Below, in pieces: positions 12,804 through 37,588 of a stretch of DNA of 64,000 bases. Source of the stretch: an uncultured Actinomycetota bacterium (GTDB taxonomy: Bacteria > Actinomycetota > Actinomycetes > JAFAQI01); assembly GCA_963770565.1 (NCBI GenBank), contig CAVYQE010000002.1:656672-720671 (forward strand). Direction: 5' to 3'. Made by a program: the position numbers and the translations under genes. Numbering within the stretch: the first letter of the stretch is position 1; each line of letters starts with the position of its first letter. The notes under the pieces are model-generated. The model made no database searches. It had not been told where the DNA came from and saw only the letters and a program-made list of their open reading frames with translations.

Positions 12804-13079
12804 TCAGGCCAAGCTGAGAAAGAGCTTCTCCATCTGGTCCGGGCTCAACGGCTCAACCTCACCCGCGGCGGCCGCCGACATGCACTGCCGCATCCCAGAG
12901 GCGAGCAACTTGTAGCCGGCGCGGTCGAACGCCTTGCTCACCGCGGCCATCTGGGTCACGATGTCGGCGCAGTCCCGGCCGTCCTCGAGCATCCGGATCA
13001 CACCGCCGACCTGTCCCTCGATTCGGCGCAGGCGCTTGACGATCTCGTCGGTCGCGCCGTTGTCGAGCTCCATGTGCAT
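12804..13079 (-). CDS. CsoR/CstR/RcnR-family (DUF156) repressor, CstR-like (two Cys, no metal-ligand His)
   Basis: MHMELDNGATDEIVKRLRRIEGQVGGVIRMLEDGRDCADIVTQMAAVSKAFDRAGYKLLASGMRQCMSAAAAGEVE...: conserved RxxGQxxGxxxM, a first Cys in ...DC.DIV.Q..A and a second Cys 29 residues later; no His four residues before the second Cys. GGAAGGA RBS. The upstream part of the track ORF 12804..13367 is not coding. Confidence 0.85.
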   Translation of the reverse strand: MHMELDNGATDEIVKRLRRIEGQVGGVIRMLEDGRDCADIVTQMAAVSKAFDRAGYKLLASGMRQCMSAAAAGEVEPLSPDQMEKLFLSLA

Positions 13080-14503: not shown

Positions 14504-14520
14504 ATACCCCGTGAGGTATA
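14504..14520. promoter_or_regulatory. CsoR/CstR-type operator op1 (ATACCCCGTGAGGTATA), 20 bp upstream of the cstB-like start
   Basis: TACCC-N4-AGGTA palindrome (right half-site 4/5). Same family as op2-op6. Overlaps the alternative ATG at 14505. Confidence 0.7.
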
Positions 14521-14745
14521 TGTTGTCGACTCGAAGGAGCTTCTTGTGTGCATGCCCACTACGTGCCGTGATTGCGGCAAGACGACCTGGCGCGGCTGTG
14601 GCCAGCACGTCGACGCCGTCATGGCCGGTGTGCAAACGTCCCAACGCTGCACTTGCCCCCGGTCGACCCGCTCATCGCGGTCAGTGCTGACCCGACTGAT
14701 CGGTCGGACCTCCGCGTAGGCGATGGCGGGCCTCGACGGAGTGTG

Positions 14746-15912
14746 CTACTCGAGCTTGAGCAACGCCATCAGCCGTTCGGCAACCTGACCGCCCGCGTCG
14801 ATCGCGACGTCAACCGCATCGCTCACCCGCAGGTCGTCACGCAGCAACGAGCGGACCTCCGCCATTGTCGTGTCAGCGGCCGCGTTGGGGCGGCCGGCGG
14901 CGGACCGCAGCGCCTCGAGACGATCTGCGGCGCGCACCAGGCACGACCGGTCGTACTGCCAACTCTCAGACCACGGGCGGTCAAGCAACATGGTGCGAAT
15001 GACGCCAGCCGAGTGATCCGCGAGCAGGTCGCGCACTAGCACAAGGTTTCCCACGGACTTCGCCATCTTCACGCCGTCGACATTTACCACTCCGACGCGA
15101 AACCATCGGCGCGCGTAGGGTCGCACTCCGGTCAACGCCTCACCGATCGCCGCCTCGAATGCGTGATGGGGGTAGCGCAGGTCGGCACCGCCGGCGTGGA
15201 TGTCGACGCCCAGCCCGAACGTGCTGAGCACCATCGCAGTGCACCCGGCGTGCCAGCCTGGACGGCCCGGACCCCATGGGCTGTCCCATCGCTGGTCGGC
15301 CCCGGTCGAGGCCTGCCACAAAGCAGCGTCCAGCGGCTGCCGCTTCGCCGGGTCGGCCAGGTTGCCGCCGTACTCCGCGGCGAGCGCGAGCGCATCGGCC
15401 TCGGATAGACCTTCGGACTCGGCGATTCCCGTACCGGGCAGGTAGACGCTGCCCTCGCTGACGTAGGCGGCTCCACTCTCAACGAGGGCCGCCGCGAGCG
15501 CCACCACCTGGCTGATGTGGTGACGAGCGCGAGGCTCGTGATGCGGCCGGGAGACCCGCAGCGCTGCCATGTCAGCATCGAAGTGGTACTGCTGCAGGTA
15601 GGCGAAGGTGTCGTTCGGGGTGCCCGCACGGTCGGCCGCAGCGCTGAGCACGTCGTCGATGTCGGTGACGTTCCGGCAGACGATCGGGGTGGTGCGACTG
15701 TCGGCGAGCACGGCCGTGAGGACGTCGACCCAGACGTACGTCGCGGCGTGACCCAGATGCGTGACGTCGTAGGGGGTGATCCCGCAGACGTAGAGGCGCG
15801 CCCGGTCGATCATGGGCAGCGGCGATCCGGCGATCGACATCGGTTCTGGCGGGGCGGCGGTCGGGTAGACGATCTGCACGCCCCCATGATCCTCCGCGCC
15901 GCGGCGGCTCAT
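14746..15912 (-). CDS. MshC-like cysteine ligase (class I aminoacyl-tRNA-synthetase-like, CysRS paralogue lacking an anticodon-binding domain)
   Basis: HIGH-type motif CGITPYDVTHLGHAATYV and KMSKS-type motif KMAKSVGN. 388 aa. Strong local similarity to my recollection of mycobacterial MshC (FGPGRPGWH..., DMAALRV...). Start overlaps the Nudix stop (ATGA coupling). Confidence 0.75.
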   Translation of the reverse strand: MSRRGAEDHGGVQIVYPTAAPPEPMSIAGSPLPMIDRARLYVCGITPYDVTHLGHAATYVWVDVLTAVLADSRTTPIVCRNVTDIDDVLSAAADRAGTPNDTFAYLQQYHFDADMAALRVSRPHHEPRARHHISQVVALAAALVESGAAYVSEGSVYLPGTGIAESEGLSEADALALAAEYGGNLADPAKRQPLDAALWQASTGADQRWDSPWGPGRPGWHAGCTAMVLSTFGLGVDIHAGGADLRYPHHAFEAAIGEALTGVRPYARRWFRVGVVNVDGVKMAKSVGNLVLVRDLLADHSAGVIRTMLLDRPWSESWQYDRSCLVRAADRLEALRSAAGRPNAAADTTMAEVRSLLRDDLRVSDAVDVAIDAGGQVAERLMALLKLE

Positions 15913-16364
15913 CGACCGGTCGACGTACTTGGTACGGCAGTGAGGAGGAACTCGCGCTGCTCATCGTGCATCAGTGGCGGGAGCTCGCGGAACCAGCCGT
16001 AGGCCCGGGCCGCGTCATCCAGCTCGATCGTCCCGGTCCATTCGGTGACCTTGAAAGCGATGCCCACCGGGCTGTCCAGGTTGTTGTTGTAGTGGCTGGG
16101 GTACTCGATGTACCCGAGGAGCTCGGCGCGATCCACCGATATCCCGAGTTCCCCCCTCGCGACCCGGGCGACCGCGTCGGTCAGCGGCTCTCCGAATCGG
16201 ACCGTGCCGCCCGGCAGGTGCCACAAGCCTCGGCAGGGCTCGGCATCGCGTCTGGTGAGGAGAACCCCGCGCTCGGAGACCAGCACGACTTCCACAGTCA
16301 GCCGGGGAACCTTGCGGTAAATCGTCCAGAACTCCCGCTCGGACAGCGGGTGGTCCACGTCCAT
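15909..16364 (-). CDS. NUDIX hydrolase
   Basis: Nudix box GLWHLPGGTVRFGEPLTDAVARVARGELG. About 151 aa from the ATG at 16364; the longer track ORF would place the operator inside the coding sequence. First gene of a two-gene operon with the MshC-like ligase. Confidence 0.7.
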   Translation of the reverse strand: MDVDHPLSEREFWTIYRKVPRLTVEVVLVSERGVLLTRRDAEPCRGLWHLPGGTVRFGEPLTDAVARVARGELGISVDRAELLGYIEYPSHYNNNLDSPVGIAFKVTEWTGTIELDDAARAYGWFRELPPLMHDEQREFLLTAVPSTSTGR

Positions 16365-16415: not shown

Positions 16416-16431
16416 ATACCCACAGGGGTAT
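16416..16431. promoter_or_regulatory. CsoR/CstR-type operator op2 (ATACCCACAGGGGTAT) in the divergent nudix / sqr intergenic region
   Basis: Perfect TACCC-N4-GGGTA palindrome. 52 bp upstream of Nudix ATG 16364 and 74 bp upstream of SQR ATG 16505. Confidence 0.8.
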
Positions 16432-17973: not shown

Positions 17974-18192
17974 ATGACCGAGAACAATGCCGCGGCCTCG
18001 TCCGCGCAGCCCACAGCGGGCGGGTCCGCGACGGATCACGTGCGCGCGGTCGGCGAGGTCGCTGACTCCCTGGCGCCGATGCCGACCAGACGGACGATTC
18101 GGATCCGAACGTTCCTGCCCTATCAGGCGTACCGCTTCGGTGTCATCAACCTCAAGATGCTCAAGGTGACCCGTCGCTCCCAGTCAAGGTGA
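17974..18192 (+). CDS. Small hypothetical protein translationally coupled to sqr
   Basis: 72 aa. GAGGAG lies 5 nt upstream of the ATG at 17974, 8 nt after the sqr stop. No recognisable domain. Confidence 0.4.
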   Translation: MTENNAAASSAQPTAGGSATDHVRAVGEVADSLAPMPTRRTIRIRTFLPYQAYRFGVINLKMLKVTRRSQSR

Positions 18193-18270: not shown

Positions 18271-19104
18271 ATGAGGCAGGAGTCACACCCACCGGGCCTG
18301 GCCCGAATCGACCGAACCGGGTCGGTGTCGCTGTGGGCGCAGGTCCGCGCTGATCTGGAGCGACGGCTCGCGGTCGATGAGTTCGACGGTGACTTCCCCG
18401 GCGAACTGGAGCTGACCGCGCAATACGCGGTCAGCCGGCACACCATTCGGGAGGCGTTGCGTCACCTGCGCGCGGAAGGCCTCGTCATCAGTGAGCGCGG
18501 ACGCCGCTCTCGCCTCGCCGACCACGCTGAAATCGAGCAACCGCTCGGCGCGCTCTACAGCCTGTTCGCCTCGGTCGAGGCCGCCGGTCTGGAGCAGCGC
18601 AGCGTCGTCCGCGCCCTTGATCTCCGCGCCGACGGAGTCATCGCGCCGCGACTCGACGTCGAGGAGTCCACCCCACTGCTCTATCTGGAACGGCTCCGTC
18701 TGGCCGGCGAGAAGCCGTTCGCGATGGACCGCGTCTGGCTCCCCGCGTCAGTCGCCGAACCGCTGCTCGACGCGGACTTCACCCACACTGCCCTGTACGA
18801 CGAACTCGCCGCGCGCTGCGGATTCCGCCTGACCGGCGGCCGGGAACACATCCGCGCGGTCCTTCCGACCACGGCCGAACGCAGACTGCTCGAACTCGAC
18901 GACACCACCGCACTGTTCGCGATCGAACGCCTTGGTGAACGGGCCGGCCAGCCAATGGAGTGGCGCCACACCCTGGTCCGTGGCGACCGATTCGCCCTCA
19001 CTGCCGACTTCACCGCCCACACCGGCTACCGGCTCGAGCTGTCCGGCCCCGAACGACAGGCTTCCAACCTCGCGACCGCATCGCAAGGACACGCCCATGG
19101 CTGA
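18271..19104 (+). CDS. GntR-family regulator with UTRA effector domain (HutC/FarR subfamily)
   Basis: N-terminal GntR HTH (...ELELTAQYAVSRHTIREALRHLRAEGLVISERGRRSRLA), C-terminal UTRA-like domain. 277 aa. Embedded in the sqr-rhodanese-tauE gene string. Confidence 0.8.
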   Translation: MRQESHPPGLARIDRTGSVSLWAQVRADLERRLAVDEFDGDFPGELELTAQYAVSRHTIREALRHLRAEGLVISERGRRSRLADHAEIEQPLGALYSLFASVEAAGLEQRSVVRALDLRADGVIAPRLDVEESTPLLYLERLRLAGEKPFAMDRVWLPASVAEPLLDADFTHTALYDELAARCGFRLTGGREHIRAVLPTTAERRLLELDDTTALFAIERLGERAGQPMEWRHTLVRGDRFALTADFTAHTGYRLELSGPERQASNLATASQGHAHG

Positions 19105-19450: not shown

Positions 19451-20370
19451 CGCTCGCCTTGGCACTTCTCCTCGGTGCCGTCATCGGGCTCAGCCTGGGG
19501 GCCCTTGGTGGTGGCGGTTCGATCCTCACCGTCCCGGCGCTCGTGTATGCGCTCGGCGAGAAGGCGTCGGCAGCCACGACCGGCAGCCTGATCATTGTCG
19601 GGATCACCGCGCTCGTTGGTTCCTTCGGCCACGCACGAGCGGGCCGGGTGCGCTGGCGCGCCGGGTTCGGTTTCGGTCTCGCCGGGGTCGCCTCGAGCTC
19701 CCTCGGGACAGCGCTCAACCGTCATATCAACCCGGATGTGCTGCTGCTCGCCTTCGCCGGCCTGGTGGTGATCGCAGCGTCAGGTATGTGGCGTCATGCC
19801 GGGGCTGCCATCGCGGTATCTGGTGATCAGCTCGAGCTTCGCGTCGCCGAGCCTGCTTTGGCGGTGGACGGCTCAAACGCTTCGAGGAGCGCAGCGGTCG
19901 AACTACCCGGCGACCGAGGCATCCGTCCCACACCGGCCAGCCAGCCGGAGGGATCGATCGACTTCCCCGGTGGCTCAACCACCCACGATTCCCTGAGAAC
20001 CGTCCTCAAGGTGGTCGCCGCCGGTCTTATCGTCGGCTTTCTCACCGGGTTCTTCGGTGTTGGCGGCGGCTTCGTCATCGTGCCCGCCCTGGCCCTCGTA
20101 CTCGCCTACCCGATGCCTGAGGCGATCGGAACGTCCCTGCTGATCATCGCCATCAACTCAGCAGCCGCCCTCGGCGAACGAGCCGGCCAACATCAGACAG
20201 TTCATTGGCACGTGATCGCGCCGTTTACGGTCGCGGCTGTTGCCGCCAGCCTCGCCGGCAAGCAGGTCGCCGACCGAGTCGACGGACCAAGGCTGACGCG
20301 CGCCTTCGTCATTCTTCTGATCGCGGTCGCGATCTACACCGCGGTCCGCAGCATCGTCGGCCTCAGCTGA
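19447..20370 (+). CDS. TauE/SafE (DUF81) sulfite/sulfur-compound exporter family membrane protein
   Basis: Duplicated 4-TM halves, each with a glycine-rich motif: LGALGGGGSILTVPAL and FFGVGGGFVIVPAL. GTG start overlapping the rhodanese stop. Confidence 0.8.
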   Translation: MTLALALLLGAVIGLSLGALGGGGSILTVPALVYALGEKASAATTGSLIIVGITALVGSFGHARAGRVRWRAGFGFGLAGVASSSLGTALNRHINPDVLLLAFAGLVVIAASGMWRHAGAAIAVSGDQLELRVAEPALAVDGSNASRSAAVELPGDRGIRPTPASQPEGSIDFPGGSTTHDSLRTVLKVVAAGLIVGFLTGFFGVGGGFVIVPALALVLAYPMPEAIGTSLLIIAINSAAALGERAGQHQTVHWHVIAPFTVAAVAASLAGKQVADRVDGPRLTRAFVILLIAVAIYTAVRSIVGLS

Positions 20371-20495
20371 GCAGACGGGAGACACCTGCTGTCACACGAC
20401 ACGACGGGCAAGGGTGGAGACTTCAACTGGGCACTAGCGGGGACTTCCAACTGGCCATAGTTGGGAATAGACGCCGGGCGAGTGCCGTTGAATCC

Positions 20496-20513
20496 TATAC
20501 CCCTAGGGGTATA
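20496..20513. promoter_or_regulatory. CsoR/CstR-type operator op3 (TATACCCCTAGGGGTATA)
   Basis: Perfect 18-bp palindrome of the form TACCC-N4-GGGTA. 17 bp upstream of the GGAGGAG RBS and ATG 20530 of the DUF2892-like gene. Confidence 0.85.
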
Positions 20514-20529
20514 CTGGAGGAGAAACGCC

Positions 20530-20739
20530 ATGGAACTCGTACGCTTTATGCAGACTTCGATAGGAAGAAGCCTTCGGGCCGTGCTCGGGGTGGTCCTGAT
20601 CGCCGTCGGTGTCGTCCTTGGTGGTGCCTGGCTAGCGCTGGCTGGTATCGGTCTCGTTCCCCTTATCGTCGGATCGGCGGGTCTTTGCCTCATCGCCCCT
20701 CTACTCCACGCTCCGATCCGTGGAGCTCAGAGATCATGA
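20530..20739 (+). CDS. Small two-TM membrane protein, DUF2892/YgaP-C-terminal-like
   Basis: 69 aa: MELVRFMQTSIGRSLRAVLGVVLIAVGVVLGGAWLALAGIGLVPLIVGSAGLCLIAPLL; two hydrophobic helices and a Cys near the second. Strong RBS. This family commonly partners rhodaneses. Confidence 0.45.
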   Translation: MELVRFMQTSIGRSLRAVLGVVLIAVGVVLGGAWLALAGIGLVPLIVGSAGLCLIAPLLHAPIRGAQRS

Positions 20740-20794
20740 GTGAGGCGCGCTCCGATTTCGGCAACTCACACATGACAGTTGACGGGACACGAGC

Positions 20795-21400
20795 GTGACC
20801 ACGCTGGACCGGCAAGGGTGGGATGAGCGGTACCGGGACACCGAGCTGGTGTGGGGCTCTGGCCCCAACCGATTTCTCGTGGACCATGTGACGAACCTGA
20901 CGCCAGGGACTGCGCTGGACGTGGCGTGCGGTGAGGGTCGCAACGCCATCTGGCTTGCGCATCAGGGATGGCGGGTGGTCGGGGTCGACTTCTCGTCCGT
21001 TGGTCTTGACAAGGCGCGAGGGCTGGCAGCGGAGACTGGTGTCACGGCGGAGTGGGTGCAGGGTGACCTCACCACATGGGAGCCACCGAAAAGCTATGAC
21101 CTCGTCGTTGTCATGTACCTGCATTTGCCAGGCGCTGTGCGTCACAGTGTCTTTGCGCGGATGGCAAAGTCGGTGGCACCGGGCGGGACCATGCTCGTGG
21201 TAGGTCATGACATGTTGAACCTCACCGAGGGAACCGGCGGTCCACAGAATGCTGCCGTTCTCTACGGGCCTGAGGACGTTGTCGGCGATATCGGCTCGGT
21301 ACTTGCGATCGAGAGAGCGGAGCGTGTTCACCGGCCGGTCTCCGGTTCGGAGGGCGAGGCGATGGCCATCGACGTCCTGGTTCGCGCTCACCGATCCTGA
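20795..21400 (+). CDS. Class I SAM-dependent methyltransferase (TehB/thiopurine-methyltransferase-like)
   Basis: Motif I LDVACGEGRNAIWLA, motif post-I VVGVDFS. 201 aa. Downstream of op3 in the same orientation. Confidence 0.8.
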   Translation: MTTLDRQGWDERYRDTELVWGSGPNRFLVDHVTNLTPGTALDVACGEGRNAIWLAHQGWRVVGVDFSSVGLDKARGLAAETGVTAEWVQGDLTTWEPPKSYDLVVVMYLHLPGAVRHSVFARMAKSVAPGGTMLVVGHDMLNLTEGTGGPQNAAVLYGPEDVVGDIGSVLAIERAERVHRPVSGSEGEAMAIDVLVRAHRS

Positions 21401-21413
21401 ACCTTTACAGGCC

Positions 21414-22127
21414 TTAGGCGGTGGCAGATGGCGCACGGAGCCACCGCAACCATTCGGTGTCGCCCATTAGGTCCAGCCGGCGCCAGAGCACGGGGTTATC
21501 CGTAGCCTGGCTTGCGTGGAGGGCGATGGCGCGATGCTGAATAGAACGGTCGACATGAAGCACGATGTCGACCTCGTCCTCGCTGCAGCCGGCAAAGCAG
21601 GTGCCGAAGGCGGCGTTGAGGGAATCGGCCACCGAGTCCGGGATCGACCAAGCAATCACAGGCAGATCAAGTAACTCGGCCGCACGCAAGGCTGCTTCTG
21701 TCGCCCGTTGATGGTCGCGGTGTCCCGTGATCCCACCGAGATCGAAGACAAGTAGCCCATGAGCACCAACCGCGTTGACATATCCAACGACATCGTCGAC
21801 CAGGATGTCGAGTTCGATGGAGTCGAGACTTCCATCAGCGTGGTCCAGCAGCCGCACATCGCTGACCGTGAGTGCATCGGCGGCGGCGGCAAGCTCGGCG
21901 ACCCGGACGACACGAAGGTCACCTGACGTCCCGTGCAGGGCTGACGCCTCGCCGTGAGTGAAACTGAGCACGGCGGTCGATGTGCCGGCGGCCGTCAAAC
22001 TAGCGATGACAGCGCCCAAGCCGAAGGACTCGTCGTCGGGGTGGGCGCACACAGCAACTACGGACGGCAGCCCCACAGCATCCAGCGTCATATCGCAATC
22101 TGACGCGCTGGGACGCCGCGCGGTCAT
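21414..22127 (-). CDS. LmbE/PIG-L-family N-acetylglucosaminyl deacetylase (MshB/Mca-like)
   Basis: Signature AHPDDE (VCAHPDDESF) and HxDH (GHRDHQ). 237 aa. Start overlaps the thioredoxin stop (ATGA), so co-transcribed with trx. Confidence 0.8.
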   Translation of the reverse strand: MTARRPSASDCDMTLDAVGLPSVVAVCAHPDDESFGLGAVIASLTAAGTSTAVLSFTHGEASALHGTSGDLRVVRVAELAAAADALTVSDVRLLDHADGSLDSIELDILVDDVVGYVNAVGAHGLLVFDLGGITGHRDHQRATEAALRAAELLDLPVIAWSIPDSVADSLNAAFGTCFAGCSEDEVDIVLHVDRSIQHRAIALHASQATDNPVLWRRLDLMGDTEWLRWLRAPSATA

Positions 22128-22492
22128 GACACGACGTTGGACTTGGCGACGAGGCGGTGGATCTCGTCCATGTCGAGGTCACGCACCTTCCCAATGAGCT
22201 CGTCCAGTGCAGCAGCCGGCAGTGCTCCGGGCTCCCTGTAGACGATCACCTCGTCGCGCAAGATCATGAGGGTCGGGATCGACATGATGCCGAACCCAGA
22301 GGCCATCTCTTGCTCGCCCTCAATGTCCACTTTGGCGAACAAGAGATCCGAGTGAGTTTCAGAGGCCTTCTCGAACACGGGGGCGAATGCCCTGCAGGGT
22401 CCGCACCACGACGCCCAGAAGTCCACCAGCACGATCTCATTGCTGGTCACCACCGTGTCGAAATCCCCTTTGGTAACAGTCACCGTGGCCAC
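22124..22492 (-). CDS. trxA: Thioredoxin
   Basis: WCGPC active site (WASWCGPCRAF). 122 aa. GTG start with GGGAAGGG RBS. op4 lies 18 bp upstream. Confidence 0.9.
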   Translation of the reverse strand: MATVTVTKGDFDTVVTSNEIVLVDFWASWCGPCRAFAPVFEKASETHSDLLFAKVDIEGEQEMASGFGIMSIPTLMILRDEVIVYREPGALPAAALDELIGKVRDLDMDEIHRLVAKSNVVS

Positions 22493-22509
22493 TGGCGCCC
22501 TTCCCTGGG

Positions 22510-22525
22510 TACCCCCTGGGGTATA
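22510..22525. promoter_or_regulatory. CsoR/CstR-type operator op4 (TACCCCCTGGGGTATA) upstream of trx-lmbE
   Basis: TACCC-N4-GGGTA palindrome 18 bp upstream of the trx GTG. Confidence 0.8.
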
Positions 22526-22575
22526 GTCTACAAGGACGGCCCGCCTGGTGTCATTCCCCCTCGCACCACAATGAG

Positions 22576-22588
22576 ATACCCGGGGTAT
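22576..22588. promoter_or_regulatory. Weak/atypical operator-like palindrome op5 (ATACCCGGGGTAT)
   Basis: Half-sites present but the spacer is 1 instead of 4. Lies 51 bp from op4 in the same intergenic region. Could be an auxiliary site or coincidence. Confidence 0.25.
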
Positions 22589-22648
22589 GACCGGGGTGGG
22601 GTCGCGTTGGACCGGTCGCTCGGTGGCGCTGATGGCGTCGTCTTGCTG

Positions 22649-23278
22649 CTATTGCGACGGACTAGCCGGATTCGCGGCCACGCCGAGGGTGAACCAGCTC
22701 CACGGTTTCGGTCCGTTGGCGTAGCGCCGCTCGATCCGCTCGATCACAAAGCCGGCATCGCCGACGAGAGCCGGAGCATCACGTGTGAGGTGGCAACCAT
22801 CTCCCAGTCGGCGCTGCCACGGGTCGAGACGGTATTGCCACCGGGCCACCGAGGCGTCGGGAGAGAGTCCGTGTTCGAGGAAATGGAAGCGGCCTCCCGG
22901 CCGGAGCACCCGGCGGAGTTCGGACAGAACCTTGGTGGGGTCGGCGACGGTGCAGAGCGTGAACGTAGAGAGCGCTGCGTCGCAGCTGGCGTCGTCAAGG
23001 GGGATCGCCTGGCCGTCGAGACCGATGTGCTCGACGGGTGTCCTGCCGGCCATGACCCGCTTCGTAGCCAATCTTCGTGCGAGCGCGGCCGGTTCGACTG
23101 CTAACACCTTCTCCACTTCTGGTGGATAGTGCTCGACGTTGAGACCGGAACCGAATCCGATCTCGACGACCCGGCCAGCGAGTCCCTCCGTCACCTCGGC
23201 GCGCCAGCCTCGCAGAGCGCCCGTGCTACATGCCCGGTCTACCAGGCGGGGAAGGACCTGCTCGCGGTAGAAGCTCAC
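22649..23278 (-). CDS. Class I SAM-dependent methyltransferase (UbiE/Methyltransf_11-like)
   Basis: Motif I VVEIGFGSGLN, motif II/III region PGGRFHFLEH. The first ~240 codons of the track ORF 22649..23998 are Arg/His/Pro-rich wrong-frame sequence. No ATG; GTG start assumed at 23278. Confidence 0.65.
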   Translation of the reverse strand: MSFYREQVLPRLVDRACSTGALRGWRAEVTEGLAGRVVEIGFGSGLNVEHYPPEVEKVLAVEPAALARRLATKRVMAGRTPVEHIGLDGQAIPLDDASCDAALSTFTLCTVADPTKVLSELRRVLRPGGRFHFLEHGLSPDASVARWQYRLDPWQRRLGDGCHLTRDAPALVGDAGFVIERIERRYANGPKPWSWFTLGVAANPASPSQ

Positions 23279-23397
23279 GGTCGCGACGCTACCGGTGCCG
23301 CCGGAGGACAACACCGCTGTGAGTGTCCGTGATCGAGGCGGGCGTCGTTTGGAGACTCCCTTGCGGTTGGCGTAGCGCGGATCTGCGCAACAAACCG

Positions 23398-24084
23398 TCA
23401 AGCGACGCGGATTGCCGCCTCGATCTCGACTCGGGCCAGCTCCTTGGTGCAGAAGAACCAGTCCTCGCACTCGATGCCGTCGATCCCGTCGTCCATGCGC
23501 TCCTTGGCGGTGCCGCATGATCCGGCGGTGGGGACGATGACCCGCTCGCCGGGCTGCCAGTCGGCGGGGGTGGCGACTGAGAAATGGTCGGCGGTCTGCA
23601 GCGCCTTGACCACCCGCAACAGTTCGGGGAAATTGCGCCCGATGCTGAGCGGGTAGTAGATGATCGTCCGGATCACGCCCTCGGGGTCGATGACAAACAC
23701 CGCGCGTACCGCCTTGGTGGAGTCCTCGCCGGGCATGATCATCCCGTACTTGCGGGCCACCTCCATCGTGATGTCCTCGATGAGGGGGAAGGTGACCTCG
23801 ACGTTCTTCATGTCGCGGTAGGTGATCTTGTCCTTGATGGTGCGCAGCCAGGCGATGTGGCTGTAGAGGCCGTCGACCGACAAGCCCACGAGGTCGGTGT
23901 TGTAGGCCGCGAACTGCTCTTGCATCGACGCGAAGGTCATGAACTCGCTGGTACAGACCGGCGTGAAGTCGGCTGGGTGCGAGAACAAGATGACCCACTT
24001 GCCGACGTAGTCGGACGGGAAGTTGATCTCCCCTTGTGTCGTCACGGCGGTAAAGGATGGCGCCGGGTCGCCGATGCGCGGCAT
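23398..24084 (-). CDS. 1-Cys peroxiredoxin (Prx6-like, AhpC/TSA family)
   Basis: Peroxidatic Cys motif FTPVCTSEF; MPRIGDPAPSF N-terminus; 228 aa from ATG 24084. The track extension to 24186 has low GC3. Confidence 0.85.
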   Translation of the reverse strand: MPRIGDPAPSFTAVTTQGEINFPSDYVGKWVILFSHPADFTPVCTSEFMTFASMQEQFAAYNTDLVGLSVDGLYSHIAWLRTIKDKITYRDMKNVEVTFPLIEDITMEVARKYGMIMPGEDSTKAVRAVFVIDPEGVIRTIIYYPLSIGRNFPELLRVVKALQTADHFSVATPADWQPGERVIVPTAGSCGTAKERMDDGIDGIECEDWFFCTKELARVEIEAAIRVA

Positions 24085-24185: not shown

Positions 24186-24202
24186 ATACCCATGGGGGTA
24201 TA
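24186..24202. promoter_or_regulatory. CsoR/CstR-type operator op6 (ATACCCATGGGGGTATA) upstream of the peroxiredoxin
   Basis: TACCC-N4-GGGTA palindrome about 100 bp upstream of prx ATG 24084. Confidence 0.7.
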
Positions 24203-24990
24203 TTCCGCGTGATCGCCAGTTCCGTGACGCCCGCATCCGCATCTTTGCCCCCTGCTCGTCCAGCGTTCTACGTGGCGCGGCTCCGCGGCTCTCCCCGCGG
24301 GTCAGCACTGGCTGATCCAGGCGCCCGCGGTGGTGTTCGCGGCCCTTCGTCGGGTCGCGCAGCACGATCCGCTGCTGCTGGCCAACGGGGTCAATCTGGC
24401 CGAAGCTGAGGCCGGCTTCGACGGTTTGAACCCAAGCCCACTCTGGGATAGTGCACCTGTGGTCTGGTCAATGCGGTTCGGCGCAGCGACGGCCAGGATC
24501 CCGTCGTTGAGTCGATCTGCTGCATTCGATGGACACGCGCCGACGCTGCGCGACGGCAGGCGCTGTGGCGCCGTCGTGCTTCTCGTCGTGGCACTAGCGC
24601 TCTTCGTCCGTGACGTTCCTGCGCTTACGACCGACAGCGGCGGTGTTCATCCGGCCGTGAGCCATGCGCAGTTCGTCGCACATGGCGCCCTCGGCGTCGA
24701 CGCCGCCACCCTCACACGCAGCCTGGATCGCGGCGGCGCCCGCTCCGCGGAGCCCGCCGTTCAGGCCGATTCGCTCAGAGAACGCCCGGTCGATGCACCT
24801 TGGGCGAAACTGCCCGCGACCCAATGGGTGCCACCGCCTCGATCGTTGCCAACCGCCCGCGCACGCGCGCCCTGAAGCCGGTCTTCCTCCCTTCGTACTT
24901 AGTCACTGCGGCACTGCACGCGCACCTTCGGCCTTGGTAACGGCCAGCGTCCGCGCGGCCGGTGAATCAACTTCGCAGAAAGGACCGGGC

Positions 24991-25800
24991 GTGTCAGCTA
25001 GCAACACCACATCCCCGACGACAGACAGAATCGCACGTAGCGCAGCTATCTCCGAGCCCGAGCGGAGCCCGACCGGTGTCTCGTCCCGCCTCGCCGCCAT
25101 CCGCCGGGCCGCTCCGGAGGCGCTACTCGTTGTGGCCTTGTACATGGCATACACCGCGACCCGAAATCTCCTCCCGTCAGCACGTCGGAGCGCGATCGCG
25201 CGAGGACTGGCCGTGGAAAGGTTCGAGGGTTCGCTGCACCTTGACCCTGAACGCGCGCTCAACCAATTCGTGGCAAATCACGCCGTGTTGGCGAGCACGT
25301 GTGATTACTACTACGCGGTCGCCCACTTCGCGGTGACCCTCGCGGTGATGATGCTTCTATACCGACGAAGTCGGCCGACGGCACGTCGACTGGCAGCGGC
25401 CTGGTACGTCACCAACCTGCTGGCGCTGCTGGGCTTCTGGCTCTACGCGCTGGCGCCACCCAGGCTCCTTCCCGGCCGCGCATACGTCGACACTGTCGTC
25501 GTGTTCCATACCTGGGGGAGCTGGGGGACGGGTGCGGTGGCGTCGGCCTCGAACCAATACGCCGCGATGCCCAGCCTGCACCTCGCCTGGGCGAGTTGGT
25601 GCACGGTCGGAATCTGGCACCTGACCCGACGCCGCTCGGTGCGACTCCTTGGCGTCGCGTATCCCCTGGCGACGCTGTTCGTCGTGCTCGGCACCGCAAA
25701 CCACTATCTGCTCGACGCCTTCGCGGGGGTCGTGGCGATGGCCATCGGGCTTGCGGTGGTGTGGTACGCACAAGAAACGATGGGGGGCTCGATCGGATGA
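24991..25800 (+). CDS. PAP2-superfamily membrane protein (AUR1/IPC-synthase-like phosphatase fold), island paralogue
   Basis: Motifs NQYAAMPSLHLAWA and ANHYLLD. Paralogous to 36671..37588 (NQYAAMPSLHVGWA, ANHYLLDVVAG). GTG start at 24991 with AAAGGA RBS. Confidence 0.65.
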   Translation: MSASNTTSPTTDRIARSAAISEPERSPTGVSSRLAAIRRAAPEALLVVALYMAYTATRNLLPSARRSAIARGLAVERFEGSLHLDPERALNQFVANHAVLASTCDYYYAVAHFAVTLAVMMLLYRRSRPTARRLAAAWYVTNLLALLGFWLYALAPPRLLPGRAYVDTVVVFHTWGSWGTGAVASASNQYAAMPSLHLAWASWCTVGIWHLTRRRSVRLLGVAYPLATLFVVLGTANHYLLDAFAGVVAMAIGLAVVWYAQETMGGSIG

Positions 25801-26235: not shown

Positions 26236-26629
26236 GCGAGTCGCGTCGGAATGTCGCGGCCGTCAGCGTAGGTGGCCGGCACGGGCAGCTCGACGGTCAC
26301 GTTGGCGACGCTCTATGACTACGAGGCGCGGCCGGTCGGACGCACCATTGCGCCGGTGGGTCATCTCATTGCCCGGCCGAGGTTGAGCAGAACCGGCAAA
26401 TTGTCGGTCGACGTCTGCTGCCGGGCGCCTCGCCATGCGGTCGCTGCCGTCGCTTGCCCGGTCTAATAGCGTATAGAGGCGGGGCCGATTCATCGAGTGC
26501 CCGGATCGCTCACGAAACCTCGGATGCCGGTTCCGGATCGGTCCGGGCCGATCAGGTGAAGATGATCTGGCCGCCGGCGGCCTGCAAGCGAGTTACATCA
26601 GTGTGTTCAGCGAAAGCGCAGGTCAGCAG

Positions 26630-26718
26630 CGGAGGCTCCGGGATTTGAACCCGGGATGGGCGCGAACCCAAACCGCATTAGCAGTGCGGCGCCATAGACC
26701 GGACTAGGCGAAGCCTCC
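26630..26718 (-). tRNA. tRNA-Ser (anticodon GCU), type II with long variable arm
   Basis: Reverse complement GGAGGCTTCGCCTAGTCCGGTCTATGGCGCCGCACTGCTAATGCGGTTTGGGTTCGCGCCCATCCCGGGTTCAAATCCCGGAGCCTCCG. Anticodon loop CTGCTAA, long variable arm, T-arm CCGGGTTCAAATCCCGG. Its 3' 56 nt are duplicated at 9657..9712. Confidence 0.9.
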
Positions 26719-36670: not shown

Positions 36671-37588
36671 TCAGCCCGGCGCAGCGGGTGGCGGAGGCGC
36701 CGGACCCACCTTCAACAACCGACGCGACCACCAGCCGATGTGACTGAACAGGCGGGCGAGGATCACACCGACACCCACGACGGCGAACCCAGCGACGACG
36801 TCCAGCAGGTAGTGGTTCGCGGTGGCGATCACATCGACCGAGAGCACGAACGGGTATGCCACGCCGAGATAGCGGGTGATCCGGTGCTTGCCGAACCGCA
36901 GGAGCTGCCAGCCCGACCAGACCGCCCAGCCGACGTGCAGCGAGGGCATCGCGGCGTACTGATTGGTGTCCTTGCCGAAGCCGCGCGGCGCGCTCGCCGC
37001 CTTCCCCCACCAGCCGTAATGGGAGTAGCGCGCCATCGTGTCGATGAACCCCGGCAGGAGCCGGGGCGGCGCGATCGGCAGCAGGCTGAAGCCGACCAGG
37101 CCCACGATCGTCGTGAACATCAGGACGGTGCGCGCGCTGGTGTAAGCGGGACCGTGCCGCCGCCACAGCCAGATCAGGACCAGCGGCGTCACGAGGTAGT
37201 GCAAGGTCGCGTACATGTAGTCCGCCGGCACCGCCAGCAGGACATGCGGCGAGACCGCGTGGTTGAGCCAGTGCTCGGGCGCGATCTTGAGCCGTTGCTC
37301 GAACCGGAGCAGCTGGGCGCCGTGCGAAACCGCACCGACGTGGTCGCCCTCGACGAAATACCGCGTGACGTCGTAGAGCGAATAGACCGCGCCGATCAGC
37401 ACGATCTCGTGGAAGCCGCGAATCGCCATCCAGGCCCTGCGGTGAGCCTGCAGATTGTCGATCCAGCCGCCGAGCCGGCTCCGGGTGTGCTCTGCGGTGG
37501 CGGCGCTGGTGACGAAGTCGAGGCGCTGCTCAGTCACAGAGCTCTCCCCTCGCCGCTTGCCACGCCGCCGTATGAGCCAGTTTGTCAC
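36671..37588 (-). CDS. PAP2-superfamily membrane protein, chromosomal paralogue of 24991..25800
   Basis: NQYAAMPSLHVGWAVW and ATANHYLLDVVAG; 305 aa; Pro-rich C-terminus. Confidence 0.7.
   Translation of the reverse strand: MTNWLIRRRGKRRGESSVTEQRLDFVTSAATAEHTRSRLGGWIDNLQAHRRAWMAIRGFHEIVLIGAVYSLYDVTRYFVEGDHVGAVSHGAQLLRFEQRLKIAPEHWLNHAVSPHVLLAVPADYMYATLHYLVTPLVLIWLWRRHGPAYTSARTVLMFTTIVGLVGFSLLPIAPPRLLPGFIDTMARYSHYGWWGKAASAPRGFGKDTNQYAAMPSLHVGWAVWSGWQLLRFGKHRITRYLGVAYPFVLSVDVIATANHYLLDVVAGFAVVGVGVILARLFSHIGWWSRRLLKVGPAPPPPAAPG

Follow-up and report, generated by a model that had tools for sequence, protein, structure and literature searches.

Two minus-strand genes, encoding a thioredoxin and a protein of the LmbE/PIG-L type, stand in tandem in the 64-kb window (the whole stretch of DNA that we analysed; Table 1). 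The thioredoxin scored 90.6 bits against PF00085 (Pfam) and 102.1 bits against TIGR01068 (NCBIfam; cut-off 96.8); its stop codon and the LmbE start codon share the letters ATGA, and because of this sharing we regard the two genes as translationally coupled. The same 4-nt overlap is also present in the closest relative, locus L002. An operator, op4, lies 17 nt upstream of the thioredoxin GTG, between that gene and a promoter-like site that is a consensus match (one site, against 0.3 expected in shuffles). With both open reading frames, the overlap, the promoter-like site and the operator all located, the op4-trx-lmbE operon described in an earlier, sequence-only reading is borne out, and this anatomy supports trx-lmbE being a real operon behind a CsoR/CstR-type operator. 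A TPMT/TehB-like methyltransferase gene runs towards lmbE on the other strand, the two ending 13 nt apart.

Table 1 Features of the trx-lmbE operon and its surroundings, by position in the window
Feature	Position	Strand	Description
CsoR-family repressor, CstR type	12804..13079	minus	PF02583, 82.6 bits
Operator op1	14505..14518	.	between PDO-rhodanese gene and small Cys-rich ORF
Short CysRS-like ligase	14746..15912	minus	CysRS catalytic domain; same island as trx-lmbE
Operator op2	16417..16430	.	between Nudix/MshC-like operon and SQR operon
Operator op3	20498..20511	.	upstream of DUF2892 gene and TPMT/TehB-like methyltransferase
TPMT/TehB-like SAM methyltransferase	20795..21400	plus	TPMT 39.8 bits, TehB 33.7 bits (Pfam)
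LmbE/PIG-L-type gene	21414..22127	minus	237 aa, ATG start
ATGA overlap, thioredoxin stop/LmbE start	22124..22127	minus	direct sequence reading
Thioredoxin gene	22124..22492	minus	122 aa, GTG start, WCGPC active site; first in operon
Operator op4, GTACCCCCTGGGGTAT	22509..22524 (core TACC-N6-GGTA 22510-22523)	.	GTACC-N6-GGTAT, abuts -10 hexamer
Promoter-like site of trx-lmbE	22525..22554	minus	-35 ATGACA, 18-nt spacer, -10 TAGACT
Operator op5	24187..24200	.	upstream of 1-Cys peroxiredoxin and second methyltransferase

Profile matches identified a CsoR-family repressor, SQR, PDO (persulfide dioxygenase)-rhodanese, rhodanese and TauE in the island around the operon, and the regulon in the window amounts to five operators and roughly a dozen genes. 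All five exact TACC-N6-GGTA sites of the window are intergenic and fall inside this one 10-kb sulfide-oxidation island, while the looser pattern TACC-N2-8-GGTA has nine matches in the 64 kb where 0.83 are expected; since nine were reached in none of 100 shuffles and the five exact sites are intergenic in the island, the observation exceeds chance. The stretch TACCCGGGGTA at 22577-22587 was left out of the operator set for its non-canonical N3 spacing. On sequence comparison, the op4 motif matches ATACC-N6-GGTAT, the site type of ScCsoR, the sulfane-sulfur sensor of S. coelicolor, as defined by EMSA (PMC7533328), and the S. mitis cst operator resembles it (PMC8643695).

The repressor, which we presume to bind op4, has two Cys residues, and Gly takes the place of the Cu-ligand His expected four residues ahead of the second one; the protein fell short of the RicR, FrmR and RcnR model cut-offs. 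An x-C-x-C as opposed to an x-C-H-C arrangement is the criterion for CstR versus the Cu-sensing type (PMC8643695), and this feature, together with the sulfide-oxidation genes of the island, agrees with the prediction that a sulfide-responsive regulator acts at op4. That op4 serves a copper-sensing CsoR, or that trx-lmbE is an unrelated passenger with no link to sulfide, is hardly credible: operators of CsoR and RicR do share the ATACC-N6-GGTAT form (PMC7533328), but the repressor has no Cu-ligand His, CopA and CopZ are missing from the island, which has SQR, PDO, rhodanese and TauE instead, and the association with sulfur genes recurs in 80 genomes, also under ArsR-rhodanese regulators. The ScCsoR circuit (SCO0618-0621) and the S. 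aureus cst operon share with the window a two-Cys CsoR-family repressor, the ATACC-N6-GGTAT operator, PDO-rhodanese, rhodanese and TauE (PMC7533328; PMC8643695). The papers that we consulted on these two circuits mention no LmbE-type enzyme, methyltransferase, dedicated thioredoxin or peroxiredoxin, whereas the regulon in the window has all of them.

The LmbE-fold protein and its relatives

The LmbE protein is a member of the PIG-L superfamily (PF02585, 83.1 bits against a Pfam cut-off of 28.2), and the AHPDDE/HxDH motifs noted earlier are present, with the zinc and catalytic residues intact (AHPDDE at H29-E33; H136-R-D138-H139). Each of H29, D31, D32, E60, R75, D98, H136, D138 and H139 is kept in at least 95% of 71 orthologues. 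An AF2 model (pLDDT 85, pTM 0.85) predicts an LmbE fold, and the 42 best Foldseek matches in the PDB were all LmbE-fold enzymes (TM 0.59-0.70); Foldseek cannot pick the subfamily, because all LmbE-fold enzymes score between TM 0.6 and 0.7. Fold, metal ligands and catalytic residues are thus those of a zinc amidohydrolase, and the chemistry would presumably follow suit.

The identification of this protein as MshB or Mca does not hold. At 237 aa it scored 32.3 bits against the NCBIfam model for MshB (TIGR03445; cut-off 224.35) and 25.9 bits against that for Mca (TIGR03446; cut-off 277.15), the latter alignment covering residues 23-99 only. Mca (M. tuberculosis Rv1082), which is longer at about 290 aa, and the LmbE of lincomycin biosynthesis share its fold and AHPDDE/HxDH zinc site, and differ in that the LmbE of the window is predicted to be regulated by a persulfide sensor. 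BshB1 (TIGR04001, 40.1 bits against 182.5) and BshB2 (TIGR04000, 43.8 against 195.25) were rejected likewise; they have the fold and approximate size in common with our protein and are bacillithiol deacetylases, BshB2 being also a conjugate amidase. To our knowledge, bacillithiol is not an actinobacterial thiol.

Closest in structure is MshB (Rv1170; PDB 1Q74, 4EWL), the top Foldseek match at TM 0.69 and 23-25% identity. Its zinc ligands are shared, and the equivalents of its E47, R68, D95, H144, D146 and H147 are conserved in the subfamily; the catalytic Tyr142 of its GGYGHPDH motif, however, aligns with Thr134, a position that is Thr in 63 and Ser in 8 of the 71 orthologues, and the C-terminal part of the LmbE protein is shorter and different. 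In sequence, the best match among solved structures is LnmX of the leinamycin cluster (PDB 5BMO; 6e-9 from the single LmbE sequence), which is similar in length at 246 aa but only about 23% identical, and which belongs to a natural-product cluster. The family profile scores LnmX at 74 bits, chitobiose deacetylases at 61 and MshB at 54. We know of no function for LnmX.

These comparisons bear on whether the protein could be a stress-inducible MshB isozyme, a GlcNAc-Ins deacetylase that would boost mycothiol as the thiol acceptor of SQR and PDO. Such a role would suit the structural match, the retained MshB residues and the distribution of the subfamily, most of whose members are in Actinomycetota, mostly in mycothiol-producing taxa. 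We nevertheless judge it quite unlikely, given the low MshB model score, a length about 60 aa short of MshB, the replacement of Tyr142 in every orthologue and the rank of MshB below LnmX and chitobiose deacetylases; moreover, the subfamily never adjoins mycothiol biosynthesis genes, its partners being methyltransferases, a PLP enzyme, OsmC and DUF302. When about 45 ORFs of the window were run against Pfam or NCBIfam, none came out as a canonical msh gene. The protein belongs to a discrete and so far unnamed LmbE/PIG-L subfamily of 254 representatives (at E<=1e-30), many of which JGI pipelines label 'N-acetylglucosamine malate deacetylase 2', and sequence alone does not separate a GlcNAc-type deacetylase from a conjugate amidase.

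Genomic company of the subfamily

We surveyed the subfamily in 80 genome loci, mostly from Actinomycetota, and in the window's own contig, 81 in all, choosing neighbour ORFs by conservation and clustering neighbours within 5 kb de novo. Within 10 kb of the LmbE orthologue we found CstR in 35 of the 81 loci, rhodanese in 33, a thioredoxin of 54-67% identity in 32, PDO in 30, SQR or an SQR-like protein in 30, a TPMT-like methyltransferase in 21 and TauE in 18. The methyltransferase is among the commonest operon partners, and its gene is directly downstream of LmbE in at least six loci. De novo clustering within 5 kb added DUF302 (23 loci), DsrE (11), a 580-aa class-V PLP enzyme (11), ArsR-rhodanese (10) and DsrC/TusE (8). 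As its neighbours include both CstR and ArsR-rhodanese, the subfamily is under two types of persulfide sensor. In about 15 of the 80 loci the sulfur genes that we looked for were absent within 10 kb, and only in Acidimicrobiales-like genomes, at some 10 loci, do trx and lmbE stand side by side.

The operator is part of this association. TACC-N6-GGTA occurred 143 times in the LmbE loci, against 11.2 in shuffles, and 0 times in 130 kb of control loci, mostly actinobacterial. Across the 80 loci, the 1 kb upstream of LmbE held 41 sites, or 5.3 per 10 kb compared with about 0.9 elsewhere, and in 19 loci LmbE itself had an operator upstream at a distance below 250 nt. Domain fusions recur as well: LmbE-DUF302 (at least 9 members), LmbE-OsmC (13) and OsmC-LmbE (2), Aminotran_5-LmbE (2 full-length members) and LmbE-methyltransferase fusions in both domain orders. 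Neither the neighbour nor the fusion survey turned up any MshA- or MshD-type partner. In actinobacteria, the LmbE subfamily is a conserved part of the gene clusters for reactive-sulfur stress; we found nothing relevant in the literature that treats LmbE/PIG-L proteins together with CstR, sulfide or persulfide.

A few members come from bins labelled Dormiibacterota or Chloroflexi, labels that may be binning errors, and because of these few a mycothiol substrate is not assured; we found no information in the literature on mycothiol in Dormibacterota. The substrate might have nothing to do with mycothiol (N-acetylated cysteine or some other acylated sulfur metabolite would be examples), or the chemistry might be other than deacetylation, as in GalB. 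The fusions to DUF302, OsmC, Aminotran_5 and methyltransferases, partners with which such an enzyme would act, are in keeping with this, as is a superfamily that holds both the hydratase GalB and LnmX of the persulfide-containing leinamycin pathway. Weighing against it, the equivalents of Arg68 and Asp95, which bind GlcNAc in MshB, are conserved, and most members are in Actinomycetota, those outside being of doubtful label; we think it unlikely.

The subfamily extends to mycobacteria. The best 120 matches of a search with the M. szulgai orthologue included M. riyadhense, M. haemophilum and M. botniense, and M. tuberculosis was absent from those 120. A link to M. tuberculosis Rv0323c, a putative third LmbE paralogue adjoining an ArsR-rhodanese regulator, is a tentative lead; the papers found on Rv0323c give no function.

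The short CysRS-like ligase

The island that holds trx-lmbE also encodes a ligase that had been called MshC-like. It resembles MshC in keeping the CysRS catalytic domain without an anticodon-binding domain. As a canonical MshC it was rejected, scoring 271.5 bits against TIGR03447 (cut-off 485.1), and as CysS likewise (252.4 bits; cut-off 340); its homologues score similarly against the MshC and cysS models. Its proposed partnership with LmbE is not conserved: only 2 of the 81 loci have a CysRS-like gene at 10 kb or less from LmbE. In one of these lineage loci, L002, a CstR-controlled rhodanese-TauE pair is followed, 223 nt downstream, by a short CysRS-like gene, and the ligases of the two loci share only 50% identity. 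Ligase homologues of 57-66% identity were examined in six genomic contexts, which contained no LmbE, CstR, SQR or operator and no sulfur genes, and a metagenome scan with the ligase returned only 5 short contigs, none informative.

The sequence-only reading had joined these parts into a loop, in which an Mca-like amidase frees GlcN-Ins, a CstR-controlled MshC-like ligase re-ligates cysteine to it, and thioredoxin is the reductant. That the two genes share an operator-marked island, that L002 repeats the proximity of ligase and CstR control, that the ligase has the domain make-up of MshC, and that a mycothiol pathway has been reported in Acidimicrobium (PMC4255298) all speak for it. The shortfall of both proteins against the Mca and MshC models, the rarity of the linkage, the six ligase contexts devoid of LmbE, CstR, SQR and operator, the divergence of the two lineage copies and the lack of MshA- or MshD-type fusions or neighbours speak against it, and we consider the loop improbable: a speculative and, at best, lineage-specific possibility.

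Proposed mechanism and significance

The reading that we favour, and hold to be probable, is that trx-lmbE answers to the island's CstR-type persulfide sensor and pairs a thioredoxin reductant with a zinc amidohydrolase of the reactive-sulfur-stress subfamily. Judging by the anatomy of the operon and by characterised relatives, the repressor would occupy the GTACC-N6-GGTAT operator abutting the -10 hexamer until sulfane sulfur derived from sulfide modified both of its cysteines and released it. Both genes would then be switched on along with those for SQR, PDO-rhodanese, rhodanese, TauE, the 1-Cys peroxiredoxin and two SAM methyltransferases, and the thioredoxin would be the regulon's own disulfide and persulfide reductant.

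More tentatively, and with the odds against us, we suggest that LmbE processes conjugates and is not engaged in mycothiol synthesis, cutting the amide in a sulfur-laden adduct of a low-molecular-weight thiol. Candidate adducts are mycothiol-type or N-acetylcysteinyl persulfide, polysulfide and S-methyl species, and the sulfur-bearing fragment could pass to the co-travelling methyltransferases, PLP enzyme and exporters; such a job would be independent of the adjoining CysRS-like ligase. To this extent the Mca-like role proposed earlier survives in part: the protein is no Mca orthologue, and the processing of a thiol conjugate would accord with its conserved company, as neighbours and in fusions, of SAM methyltransferases and a class-V PLP enzyme. 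The lincomycin route runs from an LmbE amidase through a PLP C-S lyase to a SAM S-methyltransferase, and these enzyme classes, PLP enzyme and SAM methyltransferase, are neighbours or fusion partners of the subfamily.

A bolder extension, which we rate as unlikely, makes LmbE the missing hydrolytic step in a hitherto undescribed actinobacterial route for disposing of thiol-bound sulfane sulfur, leading from amidase through PLP enzyme to S-methylation. The amidase would cleave the persulfide or polysulfide of a low-molecular-weight, mycothiol-type thiol, the class-V PLP enzyme would handle the cysteinyl fragment carrying the sulfur, and TPMT-like methyltransferases would S-methylate that sulfur to volatile or exportable products, with DUF302, OsmC, peroxiredoxin and thioredoxin in accessory redox roles; in this Acidimicrobiales lineage, remaking the thiol would fall to the short CysRS-like ligase.

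Persulfide-sensing regulons such as cst have been described with SQR, PDO, sulfurtransferases and an exporter. To these our analysis adds an uncharacterised family of zinc amidohydrolases that recurs under persulfide sensors of two kinds and forms fusions with DUF302, OsmC, a PLP enzyme and methyltransferases; a conserved reactive-sulfur-stress amidohydrolase is the best reading of the LmbE protein, and its regeneration loop with the ligase is speculative. Because some orthologues come from bacteria that can be cultured, with Amycolatopsis marina, Kribbella sindirgiensis, Intrasporangium calvum, Prescottella equi and Mycobacterium szulgai as candidate hosts, the substrate question is directly testable. 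If the substrate is a mycothiol-derived sulfur adduct, turnover of low-molecular-weight thiols would be tied to actinobacterial sulfide detoxification, a link that, if true, would extend to mycobacteria and antibiotic producers; the answer would also offer a first functional handle on DUF302.

The thioredoxin-LmbE operon and its operator

The sequence-only reading had placed a thioredoxin and an LmbE-like deacetylase together behind op4, one of the island's CstR-type operators, and this observation was confirmed: both ORFs are present, the LmbE start overlaps the thioredoxin stop in an ATGA, and the operator directly follows a promoter-like site, 17 nt before the thioredoxin start codon. Exact TACC-N6-GGTA occurs five times in the window (14505, 16417, 20498, 22510 and 24187), always between genes and always inside one 10-kb stretch; the looser pattern TACC-N2-8-GGTA has 9 matches against 0.83 expected. 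Farther upstream, 54 nt from op4 and between the stop codon of the methyltransferase gene and the trx promoter, is a shorter palindrome with N3 spacing, TACCCGGGGTA; it may be a second, degenerate site for the repressor or have arisen by chance.

The operator motif is that of the ATACC-N6-GGTAT site which EMSA established as the target of ScCsoR, the sulfane-sulfur sensor of Streptomyces coelicolor (PMC7533328), and is also similar to the S. mitis cst operator. The island's CsoR-family repressor has two cysteines, with Gly at the position of the ligand His of Cu-sensing CsoR, and its cysteine pattern is the x-C-x-C signature that marks CstR proteins as persulfide sensors (PMC8643695). Because this signature coincides with a ScCsoR-type, cst-like operator, we infer, with good support, that a persulfide sensor regulates trx-lmbE; the sulfide-responsive control proposed for the pair remains plausible.

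Features of the sulfide-oxidation island (12.8 to 24.2 kb of the window) and its flank
Feature	Coordinates	Strand	Remarks
CsoR-family repressor	12804-13079		PF02583
Persulfide dioxygenase (PDO)			two rhodanese domains
Small Cys-rich ORF	14552-14719	+	MPTTCRDCGKTTWRGCGQHVD...CTCP...; no Pfam match; divergent from PDO gene across op1
Short CysRS-like ligase	14746-15912	-	388 aa, without anticodon-binding domain
Nudix hydrolase	15909-16364	-	overlapped by ligase gene; behind op2
SQR (sulfide oxidation)			
60-aa ORF	17987-18169	+	directly 3' of SQR; no family match
GntR/UTRA regulator	18271-19104	+	embedded in SQR-rhodanese-TauE operon
Rhodanese and TauE			
DUF2892 (YgaP-like) membrane protein			precedes TPMT/TehB-like methyltransferase
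TPMT/TehB-like SAM methyltransferase	20795-21400	+	
PIG-L/LmbE protein	21414..22127	-	237 aa; AHPDDE and H136-R-D-H139; PF02585 83.1 bits
ATGA overlap	22124-22127		
Thioredoxin	22124..22492	-	122 aa, GTG start, WCGPC site; PF00085 90.6 bits; TIGR01068 102.1 bits (cut-off 96.8)
op4	22509-22524		GTACCCCCTGGGGTAT
Promoter-like site	22554-22525	-	-35 ATGACA, -10 TAGACT; 5' of thioredoxin
Shorter palindrome	22577-22587		
1-Cys peroxiredoxin			precedes second methyltransferase
Second SAM methyltransferase	22649-23278	-	
PAP2_3-family membrane protein	24664-25800	+	directly flanks island
tRNA-Ser	26629-26718		just past island
PAP2_3-family membrane protein	36671-37588	-	

Each of the two SAM methyltransferases stands behind its own CstR-type operator, which suggests that S-, Se- or Te-methylation is part of the response. 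The GntR/UTRA regulator, whose homologues (51-66% identical) again lie near PDO or SQR in three related loci (L023, L062, L064), may be a second regulatory layer. In 9 related loci a homologue of the small Cys-rich ORF adjoins a CstR or thioredoxin gene (neighbour cluster C11), and a 72-aa gene is called on Logan contig L001 where the window has the 60-aa ORF. GC content is 0.63-0.64 over the LmbE/thioredoxin/methyltransferase segment (20000-24000) versus about 0.69 in the flanks, and GC3 about 0.7 versus about 0.9; together with the nearby tRNA-Ser gene this may be the mark of horizontally acquired DNA.

Identity of the LmbE-like protein

An AF2 model of the LmbE-like protein (pLDDT 85, pTM 0.85) had no PDB matches other than LmbE-fold enzymes. 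Of these, MshB came first (TM 0.69, 23-25% identity), followed at TM 0.59-0.70 by chitobiose deacetylases, teicoplanin deacetylases, LnmX, BshB, TT1542 and the hydratase GalB. The predicted LmbE fold carries an intact metal site; when 71 orthologues are aligned, at least 95% keep each of H29, D31, D32, H136, D138 and H139, the residues of the zinc site and of catalysis, as well as each counterpart of Glu47, Arg68 and Asp95 in MshB. In contrast, the position equivalent to the catalytic Tyr142 of MshB is always Thr or Ser, and the alignment has no conserved cysteine.

The protein misses every curated NCBIfam equivalog cut-off tried: BshB2 (43.8 bits against 195), BshB1 (40.1 against 182), MshB (32.3 against 224) and Mca (25.9 against 277), refuting membership in MshB or Mca. 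A profile of the subfamily scored LnmX at 74 bits, chitobiose deacetylases at 61, MshB at 54 and BshB at 32. Among 1.84 billion representatives it found 254 proteins at E<=1e-30 as against 4695 at E<=1e-10, indicating a discrete subfamily in a large superfamily, whose members are named in their sources only 'PIG-L family deacetylase' or by pipeline labels.

Conserved neighbours, operators and fusions

We recovered 80 genome loci carrying an LmbE orthologue, mostly from Acidimicrobiales and Actinomycetes (among them Mycobacterium szulgai, Amycolatopsis, Prescottella/Rhodococcus, Streptomyces, Kribbella, Actinoplanes and Intrasporangium), with a few from bins labelled Dormiibacterota or Chloroflexi. 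Adding the window's contig, we found within 10 kb of LmbE a CstR gene in 35 of 81 loci, rhodanese in 33, thioredoxin in 32, PDO in 30, SQR or an SQR-like gene in 30, a TPMT-like methyltransferase in 21 and TauE in 18. Unbiased clustering of the conserved ORFs up to 5 kb away, with names taken from Pfam, gave DUF302 (L013, L030, L038, L067 and others) and thioredoxin as joint commonest neighbours (23 loci each), and further DsrE and a 580-aa class-V PLP enzyme (11 each), ArsR-rhodanese regulators (10), DsrC/TusE (8) and DrsE_2 (6); DUF302 is absent from the window. The PLP enzyme, roughly 580 aa long, is cysteine desulfurase/selenocysteine lyase-like with a long C-terminal extension, and adjoins the subfamily in L006, L008, L050, L061, L065 and L075. 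Four operon forms recur: Trx-DUF302-LmbE, with or without a following methyltransferase and with CstR divergent; ArsR-rhodanese-DsrE-SQR-like-LmbE; LmbE-methyltransferase-DUF302; and, in mycobacteria, Prx-LmbE.

Across the LmbE loci the operator motif was counted 143 times, versus 11.2 in shuffles. It has a sharp maximum in the first 1 kb upstream of LmbE (41 sites; 5.3 per 10 kb versus about 0.9 elsewhere) and lies within 250 nt of the gene itself in 19 loci; 130 kb of mostly actinobacterial control loci held no operator site and only one PDO-like gene. Domain fusions recur across independent samples: LmbE-DUF302 (363 aa, at least 9 members, such as P0373 and P0537), LmbE-OsmC (386 aa, 13 members), OsmC-LmbE (390 aa, 2 members), Aminotran_5-LmbE (794/798 aa, the class-V PLP enzyme; P0376, P0515), and LmbE with methyltransferase in both orders. 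Taken together, neighbours, operators and fusions show the subfamily to be a conserved part of reactive-sulfur-stress clusters, which are controlled by two types of regulator, and tie it functionally to methyltransferases, DUF302, the PLP enzyme and Cys-based peroxidases.

The CysRS-like ligase and a possible role for LmbE

A regeneration loop, in which the MshC-like ligase rebuilds what LmbE cleaves, found no comparative support. Because a CysRS-like gene lies within 10 kb of LmbE in only 2 of 81 loci, and LmbE, CstR and SQR are absent from six genomic contexts of ligase homologues (one with a PDO-like gene 5 kb off), the pairing is lineage-specific at best. Apart from the window, only its closest relative, L002, has a short CysRS-like gene near the island; this copy, 50% identical and also non-canonical, is separated by 223 nt from the rhodanese-TauE pair upstream of it, which is under CstR control. 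The ligase scores 271.5 bits on the MshC model (cut-off 485) and 252.4 on CysS (cut-off 340); homologues 57-66% identical, from Pseudonocardiaceae, Streptosporangiaceae and others, score in the same way on both models; their NCBI annotation reads 'class I tRNA ligase family protein' or 'cysteine--tRNA ligase'. The family is widespread, its proteins are about 375 aa long, and its contexts elsewhere are unrelated.

In the proposed mechanism, a CstR-type repressor would block the trx-lmbE promoter and be freed by sulfane sulfur; thioredoxin would be the regulon's reductant for disulfides and persulfides, and the LmbE-type enzyme would cut an amide bond in a thiol-derived metabolite. Mycothiol is plausible in the source organism, since its pathway is reported for Acidimicrobium ferrooxidans, the sole case among non-actinomycete actinobacteria (PMC4255298), and enzymes that depend on mycothiol have been described from marine Acidimicrobiales (PMC4337565); no canonical msh genes were among roughly 45 ORFs scanned in the window, and the substrate may instead be a non-mycothiol compound. 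With methyltransferases, the class-V PLP enzyme and exporters as partners, not MshA/MshC/MshD, a conjugate-processing (Mca-like) role is favoured, at modest probability, over a biosynthetic (MshB-like) one. The earlier interpretation is therefore partly supported: an Mca-like way of working is plausible from the partners, whereas Mca membership fell. We did not find the subfamily's conserved place in persulfide regulons in the searchable literature; this place is a moderately interesting extension of an already known type of system, and one that is easy to test.
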